Below the pieces are notes generated by a model. It ran no database searches and was not told the origin of the DNA. It was given only the letters and a program-made list of their open reading frames with translations. Position numbers and translations under genes: made by a program. From a virus (Duplodnaviria; Heunggongvirae; Uroviricota; Caudoviricetes), in the IMG/VR virus record IMGVR_UViG_2737471861_000023: a stretch of 19,938 bases of DNA; one strand, 5' to 3'. How positions within the stretch are numbered: the stretch's first letter is position 1; every line of letters starts with the position of its first letter. Shown here in pieces: positions 4,089 to 10,346 of this stretch.

Positions 4089-4269
4089 AGGATGATCCTT
4101 TTTCTATGTGAATCATCACCACTGCTGACGCCAATCAGTATGGTGGTGAACTGTGCAGGGTTGGCGTAACCGGGAAAAAGGAACCGGCGCGGATCGCTCC
4201 GCCCCCACACAGCCCACCATTGAGATGTGACAGTGCAAACGACAATAAAAAAGACGCTGGCGCGTGAGG

Positions 4270-4303: not shown

Positions 4304-4690
4304 CTACATGATTCGTTCTACGTATCTGTCCATCTCCAGTCGGATATCAAGCATCATCAACATGCCATCAATAACCCCTTCCGCTTTCTGCAGGCGCTTG
4401 CCAATACAGGTATCCGAACACCCATGCTTTCGTGCCAACCCCATAAAAGTCATTCCACCTACGTAATAATCCACCAACAAATCGTGCAAATCCTGATTTT
4501 TCTTGTTCAACCGGGCCATACAGCCACAAATTATCATTGCATCATCATCAGAACACTGAGGGCGTGATTTCACTTTCGGCGGGATTAATCCTTTAAAACC
4601 AGCAGCGATTGACGCCCATGACACATCTTCGTGATTGTTCGCAGCCCATGCTCCCCACCGCTCCATAACCTGCTGAATATCACGCACCAT
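4304..4690 (-). CDS. Late-gene antitermination protein Q (phage-82/QuuD-type), 128 aa
   Basis: Translation [34 protein letters not shown]... closely resembles DLP12 QuuD as recalled; start codon overlaps the rusA 3' end. Confidence 0.8.
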
Positions 4691-5051
4691 CGTTATCACC
4701 TGTAATTTCGTAAATCTTCACGCCCAACCGCCCACCAGGAACAGGCAGTCCGCGCACAATATTGATTTCATCAAACTGCTCGTCGTCTATAAGTAGTCCG
4801 GCATGCGTCAGCGCATCCAGTGGTGCCTTCAGGATATTGTCCAGGTCGCGGCGGCGCTTATCCGGTGGCTCTGCAATAATTTTTATTGCCAGCCTTCCGG
4901 ACAGGTTTAATTTCAGTCGCTGCTGGCGAACAATAAGCGCCACATCACGGCGATAACGCTCACCGGCTTTTGATACAAAATATGTGCTGCCACGACGTCG
5001 CCAGTAGGTGTTCACCGTTGGCGGGTAAGGCAAAACAAATTCTATCCCCAT
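4680..5051 (-). CDS. rusA: Holliday-junction resolvase RusA, 123 aa
   Basis: RusA-family signature ([12 protein letters not shown]...[29 protein letters not shown]) recognised by recall; conserved position upstream of Q. Confidence 0.85.
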
Positions 5052-6688: not shown

Positions 6689-7081
6689 CTACTGCCCTGT
6701 TTTAACGAAATTTTTAAAGGAAACAACTGCCTGATAGGGGTTTGGTTGACAGCCAAACATATTATCGCAAAAAGGCTTGATGAAAATTCTTGAGGATCCA
6801 TCTTCATTTGGCATTTTACTCACTTGATAAGCGAGGAATGGACTATTTGGAGAGGGATTATAAGTGGAAATTAGCGTGTCTGTCGCCGTTTGAATTTTCC
6901 ATGAGGAATTATTAGCCAACCAGAATTGCGCTCGTTTCCAATAAAAGTCACATTGCTTTTCATCATTACATGTTAGTGGCTTCATTGCTTCTGCTTTCAA
7001 CGCTGGATCGACCTTTGCTGCACACCCTCCCAACATTACTGTTGCAATCATTACACCTGCGACTAAAACAAGTTTCTTCAT
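6689..7081 (-). CDS. Predicted lipoprotein, 130 aa, function unknown (moron)
   Basis: Signal peptide with lipobox MLGGC; AT-rich by eye; own downstream terminator. Confidence 0.7.
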   Translation of the reverse strand: MKKLVLVAGVMIATVMLGGCAAKVDPALKAEAMKPLTCNDEKQCDFYWKRAQFWLANNSSWKIQTATDTLISTYNPSPNSPFLAYQVSKMPNEDGSSRIFIKPFCDNMFGCQPNPYQAVVSFKNFVKTGQ

Positions 7082-7224
7082 CTCCCTGCCCCATCAATAA
7101 AAGTTCGGTTCTCTAATAACTAGAGTTAATCAACGGAAAAAACGCCGAAGCGGGTTAAGTGCGGGTGCGTTGAGGATGCCTGACACATCAGAGGTGGCGA
7201 GGGATTTCTCCCCCGCCAGGTCTC

Positions 7225-7380
7225 TTACTCCTCAGGTTCGTAAGCTGTGAAGACAGCGACCTCCGTCTGGCCGGTTCGGATTCGTACCTCGCAGAGGTCT
7301 TTCCTCGTTACCAGTGCCGTCACAATGACGGTTAAACAGATGACGATCAGGGCGATTAACATCGCCTTTTGCTGCTTCAT
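7225..7380 (-). CDS. hokD: Hok-family type I toxin, 51 aa (HokD/RelF-like)
   Basis: Translation MKQQKAMLIALIVICLTVIVTALVTRKDLCEVRIRTGQTEVAVFTAYEPEE matches HokD/RelF as recalled. Confidence 0.9.
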   Translation of the reverse strand: MKQQKAMLIALIVICLTVIVTALVTRKDLCEVRIRTGQTEVAVFTAYEPEE

Positions 7381-7560
7381 AGCCTGCTTCTCCTTGCCTT
7401 TCGGCACGTAAGAGGCTAACCTAGATTTGCCGTTCATAGATTGAGCCTCAGATTAATGTTAAGCGTCTTGCAGGACGCGTAATGTTAACTGGGGCTTTTC
7501 TCTATCTGCCTTTGGTGTTCATGCCTGAGGCAGATAGCCTCAATCACCCGCAGCAATTCT
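7381..7560 (-). promoter_or_regulatory. hok mRNA leader: in-frame 19-codon upstream extension (mok-like, ATG at 7437 with GAGG SD), 9-bp inverted repeat 7502..7510/7529..7537; Sok antisense not confidently placed
   Basis: ORF track 7225..7437 is in frame with hok; inverted repeat read from sequence. Confidence 0.4.
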
Positions 7561-7591
7561 ACTTAACTCACGTCACCTCGCCAATATAAAA

Positions 7592-7681
7592 TCAATCAGA
7601 AAGGCGATCCGTAAGAACAACAGCAAGACAATAAATTGCCATTACAGCCGCAATAGCTAGCGCATATTTGAGAACCAGCAC
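7592..7681 (-). CDS. Candidate small hydrophobic peptide, 29 aa (MLVLKYALAIAAVMAIYCLAVVLTDRLSD), GTG start
   Basis: Perfect AGGAGG SD with 5-nt spacer before GTG; single predicted TM helix with charged C-terminus; absent from the 60-aa-minimum ORF track; overlaps the track ORF 7596..7820 in another frame. Confidence 0.35.
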   Translation of the reverse strand: MLVLKYALAIAAVMAIYCLAVVLTDRLSD

Positions 7682-7995
7682 GACAACCTCCTGTATTGGA
7701 CGTACACCAGTCCTGATAAATATGAGGCTGTCTCATCATTGATTCAATATAACTATTGGGTATAGTTTCTGTGATTTTGTTCTGTAGAAATGGAACACAA
7801 CAACCAGTCTCCACCAGCACTTCTTTAAATACGCCAAGTCCGACGCAAGCTAACCTTCTAGTCCGCTTTGAGCGAACTGTGGAAGCTCGGAAATGTTGTT
7901 ACATCTGATGAAGGCATTACTCAAAGGAGGGGATAGTAGTCAACGTGGAGCAGGCCATGTTAGTATTTTTATACAATTCGACTAAGGGAAAAACA

Positions 7996-8865
7996 ATGAG
8001 GCTTTACATAATAGGAAATGGATTTGACATGCGTCATGGCTTACCAACAGGATACAAGCACTTTAAGTCGTATGTAGAAAAAAATGACCAAGATCTATAT
8101 GACGCGATAGAAGAATACATTCCTGCTGGGGACGAGTGGAATGAGTTAGAAAATGCTTTAGGTGAAATTGATTATGAGCTTATCCTTCAAAACAGTGAGA
8201 TATTTTTGGCTTCATACAATACCGATGATTGGAGCGATGCTTATCATCACGATTACCAATATGAAGTAAATAAAATCACACAAATGCTGTCAGCTCGTTT
8301 GAAGGAGCAATTCGCTGATTGGGTTAAAGGGATTAACATAGCCGATGCTTACAATCCTAAGCAATACATCCCGCCCATACCAAGAGAAAGCATCTATTTT
8401 TCATTTAATTATACAAATACCTTGCAGCAGATCTATGCCGTTCCAGACGAGCAAATCATACATATTCACGGCAATTGTAGTTACGATGACGATCTCATAC
8501 TTGGTCATAGTTTTAGGGTGGAAAAGTCACTAAATCCATATATAGGACCGGATCAAGATACAAGAATAGCAGAGGCATACGACAGAATAAACGAATACTT
8601 CGGTAATACATTCAAGCCCAGCGAAGACATAATTAAAGAAGAAAACGTTTTTTTCTCATCGCTTAAAAATGTGGACGAGGTCATCGTTTTAGGCCACTCG
8701 CTCGCCGAAGTTGACGGTGAATACTTTACTGAAATAAATAAAAGTATCCAAGAAAATGCTCGATGGATAATTGCTTTATATAGAGGTGAGAAAAAATCAG
8801 GCAGTTTAGAAGATTATGGTGTCAGAGGCTCAAATATTTCTTACGTACAGTATGAAGATATCTGA
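7996..8865 (+). CDS. AbiH-family abortive-infection protein homolog, 289 aa
   Basis: N-terminus MRLYIIGNGFDMRHGL carries the GNGFD motif I recall as diagnostic of the AbiH family; AGGGA SD; gene is AT-rich by eye. The track ORF start at 7945 (GTG) is considered an artefactual extension. Confidence 0.75.
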   Translation: MRLYIIGNGFDMRHGLPTGYKHFKSYVEKNDQDLYDAIEEYIPAGDEWNELENALGEIDYELILQNSEIFLASYNTDDWSDAYHHDYQYEVNKITQMLSARLKEQFADWVKGINIADAYNPKQYIPPIPRESIYFSFNYTNTLQQIYAVPDEQIIHIHGNCSYDDDLILGHSFRVEKSLNPYIGPDQDTRIAEAYDRINEYFGNTFKPSEDIIKEENVFFSSLKNVDEVIVLGHSLAEVDGEYFTEINKSIQENARWIIALYRGEKKSGSLEDYGVRGSNISYVQYEDI

Positions 8866-8954
8866 ATGAGACTTCATATTATAACTATAATTATGTAAAA
8901 AAGGCTGGTATTTTATACCTTGAGGAAAATAGATAAGAGGAATGAGGTTTGGTT

Positions 8955-10346
8955 ATGATGAATTATACTGATGAGTCAACTTTTCTTGAAAAGTACAAAC
9001 CGTTTAGGAAGTTTTGGACAATTTTATCACCTCATTATGTATCTTTAATGCATGCACTTGCCAAAATGATAAGGGGAGGGAATCCAATTCAAGAACTACC
9101 TTCCAATGATGAGGATTTTCTTGCAGAGTATGAAACCTGTCTCAAAAATTGGAAAGACTCACAAAAAATCATATCTTTTGAGATTATTATTCGGCTGAGA
9201 GATATAAAAAGATTGGAAACTGAAAAAAAAGAGCACCATCGAAACAAGGATAAAGAAAATAAAGAAAAGTGTATTGATGAAATAAGTTTAAAAAAAATTG
9301 AAATTCTTATTCTTCGCCGTTGTATTGACTCAATAATTTGGAGCATTCTTGATGAAGAACACTCTAGTTTGCGGCGTTTACCTATTAATGCAAGCAATGA
9401 CAATCTATCAGAAGATAACATAATTGATTCTATGGTCGCAGCCGATCTTATCAACCAGGACAAACACTCCGTAGCGATTGTCTCTGACATGAGCACATTT
9501 GTTCATGTGGGAGATTTAGTCACCTTTAATCTACTGGATGGCTTCCAGCTCGTGGAAGTTAAAACAGGTGAAAAGAATAATGAGCTTTATGAAGCTGCTG
9601 AATTTTCTGTTATCTCAGAATGTCCGCACTTTGAAGAAAACTTCATTAACAATATGCCTGACAATGATGTTAAGCAATTTAATCGCATAAAAAGGCAAAT
9701 CATTCGTGGCATGAATGTTCTGGAGGCGATTAATACTGGCGAGGGCTTTGACAACTTTCATCAGTCTAAAGTTAAAATCAATGAGATAGATCATCCGTCT
9801 GAATTTTATACCCACCGCTTAGTTAAAATGTGGGAGATTATTCGCGGAGGAAAAAATTGGGCAATTGATACTATTGATGAATGTTTGTTCTTAGGTATGT
9901 ACCGTGATTCTGAAATGGGCTTTGTTGCCTTCAATGGATGGATGGATAGTCTCGGTATAAAAAGCCCTGTTGTGAATATAAATGATTCATTCTTTGACCC
10001 TTTGTCTCGACCATTTATGAGTTTGCATCTGCCAACTGAAATGCTCTCCGATCTCATGTCGGGACAAATAATCATCGTCATGTGTTTTGACAATGAACTT
10101 TTTTTTCACCGTGCTAACAAAACGTACCCGGGTTTATATCTCCTTAGCGATGCAGCAAGAACAAAGCAGCCATTAGAAAATATTCTTCGTGTTGGTTCAC
10201 AAGGGATAGCTTCTTACGTAGATGGGAATACCAGCTTTTTAGGTAATGGTATTGAATCCCGTATCCTTTTCGATCAGCAACGACCCGACAACATTATTGA
10301 GTGGAGCTATGCTAGAAGCGATCTCAAAAAGCAACATGAAGCATAA
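8955..10346 (+). CDS. Hypothetical 463-aa protein co-transcribed with the AbiH homolog; candidate PD-(D/E)xK nuclease core (VHVGDLV...LVEVK) and Lys/Glu-rich region
   Basis: ATG at 8955 with GAGG SD, 89 nt after the AbiH stop, same strand; motif D189-x13-E203-V-K205 (track numbering) at nt about 9500..9565; no family recognised. Confidence 0.7.
   Translation: MMNYTDESTFLEKYKPFRKFWTILSPHYVSLMHALAKMIRGGNPIQELPSNDEDFLAEYETCLKNWKDSQKIISFEIIIRLRDIKRLETEKKEHHRNKDKENKEKCIDEISLKKIEILILRRCIDSIIWSILDEEHSSLRRLPINASNDNLSEDNIIDSMVAADLINQDKHSVAIVSDMSTFVHVGDLVTFNLLDGFQLVEVKTGEKNNELYEAAEFSVISECPHFEENFINNMPDNDVKQFNRIKRQIIRGMNVLEAINTGEGFDNFHQSKVKINEIDHPSEFYTHRLVKMWEIIRGGKNWAIDTIDECLFLGMYRDSEMGFVAFNGWMDSLGIKSPVVNINDSFFDPLSRPFMSLHLPTEMLSDLMSGQIIIVMCFDNELFFHRANKTYPGLYLLSDAARTKQPLENILRVGSQGIASYVDGNTSFLGNGIESRILFDQQRPDNIIEWSYARSDLKKQHEA

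Follow-up and report, generated by a model that had tools for sequence, protein, structure and literature searches.

The DNA analysed here (the window) is a stretch of 19,938 nucleotides from a Caudoviricetes virus, IMG/VR record IMGVR_UViG_2737471861_000023. Positions 7137..7584 of its minus strand very probably represent a complete hok/mok/sok type I toxin-antitoxin module of the hokD/hokW type, as judged from the sequence elements found there, from their alternative pairings, from covariation, and from homology to described systems (Table 1). The module belongs to an ordinary, already known kind that is commonly carried by E. coli lambdoid prophages. It is carried by a Qin/Sp5-like lambdoid prophage, in whose early-right region it is flanked by replication genes (DUF977) on one side and DUF968-RusA-Q on the other. 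The genes of the minus strand run from a replisome organiser through DUF977, hok, DUF968 and RusA to Q, and the same backbone is found in strain A20, in O157 and in K-12 Qin. A hydrophobic ORF of 29 aa at 7592..7681 was considered as a possible Hok remnant on the basis of a 'KYAL' motif; this candidate was dropped, and the ORF has no match in Pfam (E up to 10) or PHROGs.

A first-pass annotation of the window had described a HokD-type toxin with a mok-like leader, a structured 5' region, a possible Sok RNA and no relBE, all of which were borne out. The Hok protein matches Pfam PF01848 HOK_GEF with 81.6 bits (cutoff 22) and PHROG 251 'MokW-like host killing' at 1e-33, and the resemblance to HokD/RelF proposed in that annotation turned out to be complete identity with K-12 HokD (51/51 residues). 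The HokD peptide is reported to be toxic when overexpressed, and a survey found 44,248 Hok homologues, which are enriched in prophages (bioRxiv 10.1101/2025.08.07.668861). The 19-codon in-frame extension upstream of hok, for which a Shine-Dalgarno (SD) sequence of its own had been claimed, is mok: the hok ATG at 7380 follows the mok ATG at 7437 at 57 nt downstream in the same frame, and the GAGG motif is located 8 nt ahead of the mok ATG.

In regard to the leader, the Rfam family RF01794 ('sok') matches positions 7549..7375 of the minus strand with 101.6 bits (gathering score 59) along the full model (1-157). The model is oriented in the sense of hok, since in K-12 it matches the hokC/mokC strand, with the annotated sokC on the opposite strand, and the match therefore identifies the hok leader and not the Sok strand. 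For this reason, the strand of Sok was not taken from the family name, and Sok was placed through alignments with sokC and sokW instead. In a six-way alignment, the window is colinear, all the way from the promoter into the 3' UTR, with K-12 hokC, K-12 hokB and the R1-type plasmid hok, and the predicted mRNA can also be aligned end to end with that of Sp5 hokW.

Table 1. Features assigned to the hok/mok/sok locus, in window positions, with the basis of each assignment.
Feature	Position	Strand	Basis or remark
hok/mok mRNA promoter (-35 TTGGCG, 17-nt spacer, -10 TAGAAT)	7556..7584	-	consensus scan; sigma-70-like
Predicted full-length hok mRNA, 413 nt	7137..7549	-	+1 at ~7549-7551, to the T-run past a short UUCG hairpin
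tac (translational activator element) GGGUGAUUGAGG	7538..7549	-	pairs with fbi in the full-length MFE structure and with ucb in the 3'-truncated one
5' stem-loop, 10-bp perfect stem, 16-nt loop	7502..7537	-	inverted repeat and Rfam model helix
ucb / anti-SD box AAAAGCCCC	7491..7499	-	pairs with mok SD in the full-length form and with tac in the truncated form
Palindromic insertion of ~17 nt relative to R1 and hokC	7463..7480	-	insertion in the Rfam alignment; lengthens the hok-leader/Sok hairpin
mok Shine-Dalgarno GAGG	7446..7449	-	sequestered by ucb in the full-length fold
mok, 70 aa	7225..7437	-	in frame with hok, common stop
dcb UUAGCCUC	7412..7419	-	AGCC pairs with mok SD in the truncated fold
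hok, 51 aa	7225..7380	-	SD AAGGAG at 7395..7390; Pfam HOK_GEF
3' stem-loop across the hok stop	7179..7236	-	predicted 3' end structure of the processed mRNA
fbi (fold-back inhibition element) CCUCAACGCACCC	7163..7175	-	pairs with tac in the MFE structure
Sok promoter inside mok (-35 TTGCCT 7394-7399, 17-nt spacer, -10 TAACCT 7417-7422)	7394..7422	+	homology
Predicted Sok RNA, ~77 nt	~7429..~7505	+	ends placed by alignment to annotated K-12 sokC

Predicted folding of the hok messenger and the sok gene

The promoter of the hok/mok messenger sits 7 nt upstream of the predicted start of transcription. It was detected in a generic promoter and terminator scan of the window, in which neither terminator nor the Sok promoter was found. 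Both ends of the messenger are predicted ends, placed by homology to related loci. When such loci were fetched from one genome per species (about 60-62 loci), nucleotide homology to the predicted transcript began at mRNA position 1-2 in nearly all of the ~60, which fits a transcript with a functional extreme 5' end. As for the 3' end, the terminator stem that follows fbi is cut to 3 bp (CGGCGGG to CGGCGTT) at a recombination junction common to the window and strain A20, at which a different downstream gene begins. The shortened stem was considered as a decisive sign of inactivation and rejected as such, because the functional Sp5 hokW is unrelated after fbi and devoid of this hairpin as well, and strain A20 shares the junction.

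The full-length RNA has a predicted minimum free energy (MFE) of -162.3 kcal/mol, with a z of -5.9 relative to shuffled sequence. In its MFE structure tac is paired with fbi and ucb with the mok SD, whereas in the RNA cut before fbi the pairs are exchanged for tac-ucb and mok SD-dcb (ViennaRNA). The same switch from a closed to an open form has been described for the R1 hok mRNA (PMC9841398). In the closed form, nucleotides 1-5 and 7-12 of the messenger pair with nucleotides 383-387 and 375-380, with 10.75 expected pairs between tac and fbi, and an 8-nt perfect long-range inverted repeat connects 7160-7167 with 7545-7552.

These structures were compared among 34 aligned loci from Escherichia, Shigella, Kluyvera, Citrobacter, Pseudocitrobacter, Pantoea, Erwinia and Photorhabdus, with the R1-type locus and K-12 hokC included. 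The full-length structure leaves 80.9% of the cells of this alignment paired, compared to at most 46.8% in slid controls, and in 27 of its pairs both partners have changed. The shuffles had a mean covariation score of 0.104, compared to 0.146 for the real alignment, which none of the 500 shuffles attained. Since the window sequence itself served to derive the structure, the percentage of paired cells is somewhat favoured, and the double changes constitute the stronger evidence. Among individual helices, tac-fbi is paired at 92.7%, with two pairs changed on both sides and with changes from U-A to C-G, and tac/ucb is paired at 96.4%, the helices of the truncated form being likewise supported. 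Pairs between dcb and the mok SD are kept as GC in 33/34, GC in 32/34 and CG in 32/34 loci, and the 3' stem-loop has covarying pairs in helices 7, 9 and 10. In the window itself the alternative pairing is present in a weakened form, with one tac-ucb pair broken by the base A at position 7544 (A7544), which is discussed below.

The perfect inverted repeat reported earlier in the leader is real and one pair longer than had been claimed, joining 7502-7511 with 7528-7537 (10 nt, 100% complementary). It is not a chance repeat: it coincides with a helix of the Rfam model that is 91.7% paired in the 34 loci and has three pairs changed on both sides. The first-pass annotation had proposed alignment to characterised hok/sok loci and covariance modelling of the leader as checks; the former located the fbi, tac, ucb and sok elements in the window, and the latter is answered by the RF01794 match together with the helices supported by covariation.

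The antisense RNA would begin 9 nt inside mok. In its predicted form it opens with a free 5' tail of 7 nt, which can pair with the start of mok, continues with a long hairpin and closes with a U-rich tail, with a folding energy of -33 kcal/mol and a z of -5.8 relative to shuffled sequence. Seven pairs of the Sok-target hairpin helix are changed on both sides in the 34 loci, and the Sok promoter, hairpin and U-tail are conserved among them. The predicted RNA is longer than the 59 nt of sokC because the ~17-nt palindromic insertion, present in 16 of the 34 loci including Sp5 hokW, extends the hairpin. The geometry of the promoter is that of R1 (TTGCGC-17-TATCCT), and the TA...T of the -10 hexamer is kept in the loci without base loss there. 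Base for base, the promoter is identical to the sokW promoter of Sakai prophage 5, and the hairpins of the two RNAs differ by one loop base. The sokW RNA was seen on a northern blot, and a '-10-less' ('pro-less') mutant of its promoter lost protection (PMC8621323); the primers of that study confirm which bases of the sokW promoter were mutated.

Whether a Sok-like RNA is encoded on the plus strand around 7390..7480 had been posed as a question, which can be answered because the published homologue sokW aligns with an identical promoter. The region does hold the promoter and the 5' part of the RNA, but the RNA itself would span ~7429 to ~7505. Likewise, the hexamers there had been called weak, and they do fall below the threshold of the generic scan; however, they are the same as in the sokW promoter, whose -10 mutation abolished antitoxin activity. 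The failure of the scan to find the promoter was for this reason not counted against it. The question of Sok is thus settled by homology, in that the promoter and both ends can be placed, and the gene is presumably transcribed in this element.

Relationship to known hok/sok systems and to relBE

The closest characterised system is hokW-sokW of Sakai prophage 5 (Stx2 phage VT2-Sakai; Takada et al. 2021, PMC8621323), which experiments have shown to be a toxin-antitoxin system of type I, with an unstable sokW transcript, a stable hokW messenger processed at its 3' end, and release of the toxin upon sokW decay (PMC8621323). It has 90% identity to the window and aligns colinearly with it from the hok -10 hexamer through fbi. 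The two loci have in common the Sok promoter, the ~17-nt insertion, an in-frame mok of 70 codons, ucb, dcb and fbi, and in both cases the host element is a lambdoid prophage. They differ in the last six residues of Hok (FTAYEPEE in the window, VDYESEK-type in HokW), in mok codons 2-6, in the Sok 5' tail and in the sequence after fbi, as well as in one tac base, which is C in hokW and A in the window. The prophage backbone and the position within it are also different, being those of an Stx phage for hokW and of a Qin-like element (DUF968-RusA-Q) for the window.

The mechanistic paradigm of the family, R1 hok/sok (parB), presents the elements in an identical order: promoter, tac, 5' hairpin, ucb, Sok target hairpin, mok SD/ATG and dcb, followed by the hok SD, hok, the 3' hairpin and fbi. 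The 17-nt spacer of the Sok promoter, its -10 of the form TAxCCT, an in-frame mok and the pairings of the full-length and truncated messenger are likewise common to both. On the other hand, R1 Hok is only distantly similar to the Hok of the window (the literature gives 44% for HokW versus R1 Hok), and the R1 leader, unlike that of the window, has a larger 5' hairpin loop and is devoid of the ~17-nt insertion. R1 hok/sok is plasmid-borne and has demonstrated post-segregational killing. The nearest annotated chromosomal paralogue in which all three genes are annotated is K-12 hokC/mokC/sokC (gef). There, mokC is in frame and encodes 69 aa, and sokC, of 59 nt and without the hairpin insertion, runs on the opposite strand and has 9 nt in common with the start of mokC. 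Its Sok promoter has a -35 of TTGACC and a degenerate -10, and IS186 lies directly downstream of the locus.

The first-pass annotation was right that relBE does not occur upstream of hok: tblastn with K-12 RelB and RelE gave no significant match in the window, and the upstream neighbours are the 29-aa ORF and then an AbiH gene on the other strand. Consequently, the relBEF arrangement, with relB-relE directly upstream of hokD in the same direction, was not found. It was also right about K-12, where the alignment places hokD (relF, in Qin) behind relB-relE without the mok start, the Sok -10 and the Sok RNA. However, describing the window locus as detached from relBE reverses the likely history, as the full-length locus free of relBE is the common form. 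At least 80% of the 601-bp stretch 7100..7700 is present in 1708 of 5426 complete E. coli genomes, and part of it in 4770 genomes, with the gene annotated hokD throughout. A further 74 phage records, among them Stx phages and mEp460, hold at least 80% of the 454-bp stretch 7137..7590, and plasmid records also carry the locus. In phage records it has been annotated as 'MokW', 'HokD toxin' and 'gef homolog'.

Genomes of the K-12 type match only positions 7394..7137 of the window (98.1%), and relE and relB lie upstream of that point. Besides the identical Hok, K-12 hokD has kept the hok SD, the ORF, the 3' stem-loop, fbi and most of the terminator, while the hok promoter, tac, ucb, the Sok target, the mok start, the Sok -10 and the Sok RNA were lost and relB-relE is found in their place. 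Downstream of hok, the backbone of the Qin prophage is the same as in the window (DUF968, Q). Because the full-length form without relBE is widespread and K-12 has kept only 7394..7137, K-12 relBE-hokD is likely a truncated derivative, and the window probably represents the common complete state. The inactivation of K-12 hokD was reportedly attributed to a rearrangement by Pedersen and Gerdes in 1999; a literature search on inactivation of K-12 hokD by rearrangement yielded nothing relevant.

It follows that a hokD without relBE is in its normal state, and the rare tac variant is the sole small curiosity of the locus. The hok/sok family is catalogued in tens of thousands of copies, the near-identical homologue hokW-sokW has already been characterised experimentally, and a standard annotation pipeline names the gene of the window hokD. 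At the same time, mok, Sok and the RNA elements are unannotated in the RefSeq E. coli records inspected and in most phage records, in which only the hok CDS is marked.

Proposed role and the rare tac variant

Following the R1 paradigm, the sigma-70 promoter at 7584..7556 would give rise to a stable mRNA of ~413 nt, in which tac would pair with fbi and ucb would sequester the mok SD. Due to these two pairings, the full-length messenger is proposed to be neither translated nor bound by Sok. Slow trimming at the 3' end would remove fbi, allowing tac to pair with ucb while the region of the mok SD refolds with dcb. Translation of mok from ATG 7437 would then become possible, and hok would be translated from ATG 7380 by coupling. 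As long as Sok is made, this short-lived RNA would pair with the mok initiation region of the processed messenger and lead to its destruction. Once Sok is no longer made, because the prophage is induced, the element is lost or transcription is shut off, the 51-aa Hok would be produced and the inner membrane damaged. For the window locus, we infer expression, the control of toxicity and the biological role from its homologues. The tested chromosomal hok loci are said, by Pedersen and Gerdes in 1999, to have given no post-segregational killing. That chromosomal hok loci are without such killing is repeated in bioRxiv 10.1101/2025.08.07.668861. The best-documented role in a prophage is that of Sp5 hokW-sokW, where, upon induction, lysis comes earlier and about twice as much phage is released (PMC8621323). 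In that system, induction with MMC removed sokW, HokW was produced, and deletion of the locus halved phage release (PMC8621323).

Several points of this scheme could be read differently. In regard to mok, the peptide and its frame are unconserved: among the 34 aligned loci mok is in phase with hok in 19 and out of phase in 13, and its length varies from 19 to 71 aa. The in-frame arrangement of the window is by itself not special, as the annotated K-12 mokC is arranged likewise (in frame with hokC, common stop) and the mok of the R1-type locus, of 71 aa, is also in frame. An annotated mok in the record of phage Rac is out of frame. One could argue from this variability, and from the good SD that hok has of its own (AAGGAG), that the 19 codons are not a true mok, the frame being a by-product of constraints imposed by the RNA structure and the Sok promoter, with the hok SD alone in use. 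Such an explanation is highly improbable, because an ATG with a GAGG SD is kept at the aligned position in 32 of the 34 loci, the conserved alternative pairings centre on the mok SD and not on the hok SD, and in R1 no Hok is produced when the mok SD or the mok start is mutated or when mok is stopped early (PMC9841398, Table 1). Translation that extends into the start region of hok is the conserved feature, and not the Mok peptide, and a conserved start combined with a variable frame is what translational coupling predicts. As for the role of the module, the AbiH gene (Pfam 232.8 bits; PADLOC AbiH) and a gene of 465 aa without known function lie immediately upstream on the other strand, the slot beside hok holds different cargo in different prophages, and R1 hok/sok reportedly reduces plating of T4, as cited in PMC8621323. 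The locus could hence be an R1-like module that serves abortive-infection defence or prophage addiction instead of lysis, in a cluster with the adjacent AbiH. We consider this rather unlikely. The adjacency to AbiH is known from one window and is weak evidence, hok is not enriched near defence systems (bioRxiv 10.1101/2025.08.07.668861), and the sole direct experiment on a prophage homologue revealed a positive effect on phage release (PMC8621323), though defence or addiction and lysis are not mutually exclusive.

A further alternative concerns the activity of this particular copy of an otherwise complete module. The tac element of the window is GGGUGAUUGAGG, compared to GGGUGCUUGAGG in the closest relatives, with A replacing a conserved C at position 7544. 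C is found at this position in 32 of the 33 other aligned loci, and the window is the only one of the 34 rows in which the C-G pair of tac/ucb is broken. The nearest copy in a genome, that of strain A20, is 99.2% identical and carries C. A 21-mer with the A is present in 4 IMG/VR contigs and its counterpart with the C in at least 120, and the exact 51-mer with the tac A was found in none of the 5426 complete E. coli genomes. According to the numbering, which was checked, position 7544 corresponds to C5 of the R1 hok mRNA, and in R1 toxicity was abolished whichever substitution was made at G4, C5 or U6, which the authors ascribed to the processed mRNA losing its tac stem (PMC9841398). As A7544 is located at a position of toxicity loss in R1, the copy in the window may be attenuated. 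In ViennaRNA predictions, A7544 costs ~5 kcal/mol in both forms of the messenger, and residual pairing of ucb with the mok SD amounts to 0.9 with A versus 0.05 with C. It is therefore possible, if doubtful, that the locus has preserved the full architecture in an allele silenced or strongly attenuated by A7544, in which case the copy would be a relic in decay, as is assumed of the K-12 hok loci. Of the A-variant contigs, one (L071, IMG/VR) is identical to the window across the locus, and two of the other three distinct ones are changed elsewhere, one by a mok stop together with changes in ucb and the Sok -35, and one by Hok I12S, while the third is intact. A C-to-U change in fbi in two A-variant contigs was examined as a possible compensatory change and dropped, since the same U occurs with a normal tac C in many loci. 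Against silencing, the switch is still predicted with A7544 through a shifted tac-ucb register (4.7 expected tac-ucb pairs with A versus 6.9 with C), and the hok and mok frames, both promoters, ucb, dcb, fbi and the Sok hairpin are all intact. Moreover, the effect of the R1 substitutions would have to be carried over to hokD by homology, and the sample of A-variant loci is very small.

Beside the complete module with its predicted, although weakened, switch stands a tentative reading of its tac variant, by which A7544 might have produced a hokD allele locked or attenuated by nature and segregating in a small prophage lineage, some members of which have already decayed further. If this is true, it would represent a natural case of a type I toxin being silenced through the RNA switch and not through the coding sequence. 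The tac variant could likewise serve as an inexpensive test, provided by nature, of how tac-ucb activation works outside R1.

Tyr47 codon and alternative tac pairing in hok

The Tyr47 codon of hok lies within a conserved CUUACGAAC context (7236..7244, minus strand), where the UACG motif is present. In hokB, UACG is the motif reported for A-to-I editing by TadA, through which Tyr is changed to Cys, and according to a survey of Hok proteins (bioRxiv 10.1101/2025.08.07.668861), TadA editing at this motif also takes place in hokC, hokD and hokE.

At the 5′ side of the mRNA, the tac element is complementary to the mok Shine-Dalgarno sequence and its spacer (AGGCUCAAUC) at nine of ten positions (7536..7545 with 7439..7448), with the A at 7544 gaining one pair in this alternative interaction in comparison with the common C allele. 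The interaction is unused in the MFE folds.

Records of related hok loci

Near-identical hokD loci were found in records labelled as Veillonella, Collinsella and Haemophilus MAGs and as an Actinobacillus phage, as well as in contigs assigned to Xanthomonas pisi (431 bp) and Acinetobacter idrijaensis (275 bp). These records are the genome contigs L009, L015, L042, L053, L061 and L068, and H53 among the phages; the hokD loci carried under such names most likely represent E. coli contamination or misbinning. Tandem hok pairs, about 520-630 nt apart inside one locus, were observed in Pseudocitrobacter faecalis (L052) and in Photorhabdus (L033 and L051).

Genes surrounding the hok module

Features in the surroundings of hok
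Feature	Coordinates	Strand	Description
C4 antisense RNA	4139..4224	-	Rfam RF01695, 74 bits (threshold 45)
Q antiterminator gene	4304..4699	-	C4 antisense RNA directly downstream
130-aa ORF	6689..7081	-	lipoprotein-like N-terminus; phrog_16082; weak Cor-like signal
29-aa ORF	7592..7681	-	strongly hydrophobic, MLVLKYALAIAAVMAIYCLAVVLTDRLSD
AbiH abortive-infection gene	7945..8865	+	Pfam 232.8 bits; PADLOC AbiH
465-aa ORF	8949..10346	+	3′ of AbiH gene

On the downstream side, the stem of the hok terminator contains the insertion junction of the 130-aa ORF, a junction shared with strain A20. In K-12, rem stands in the place of this ORF.

Upstream of the hok promoter, the 29-aa ORF starts with GTG, preceded by AGGAGG 6 nt to the 5′ side; its 3′ end lies 8 nt upstream of the hok -35 element. 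It is kept in strain A20, and a partial hypothetical protein is annotated by PGAP at the matching site in O157; searches of Pfam and PHROGs gave no match for it.

The AbiH gene and the 465-aa ORF, the latter having no match in Pfam, PADLOC, PHROGs or NCBIfam, are placed between DUF977 and hok, on the strand opposite to hok. The same slot is occupied by relBE, flxA and ydfV in K-12, by an alpha/beta hydrolase in O157 and by a 444-aa unknown protein in phage Tritos, while in strain A20 it is empty. The slot adjoining hok on the DUF977 side looks like a variable cargo site, and the AbiH gene together with the 465-aa ORF may constitute a two-gene defence system.
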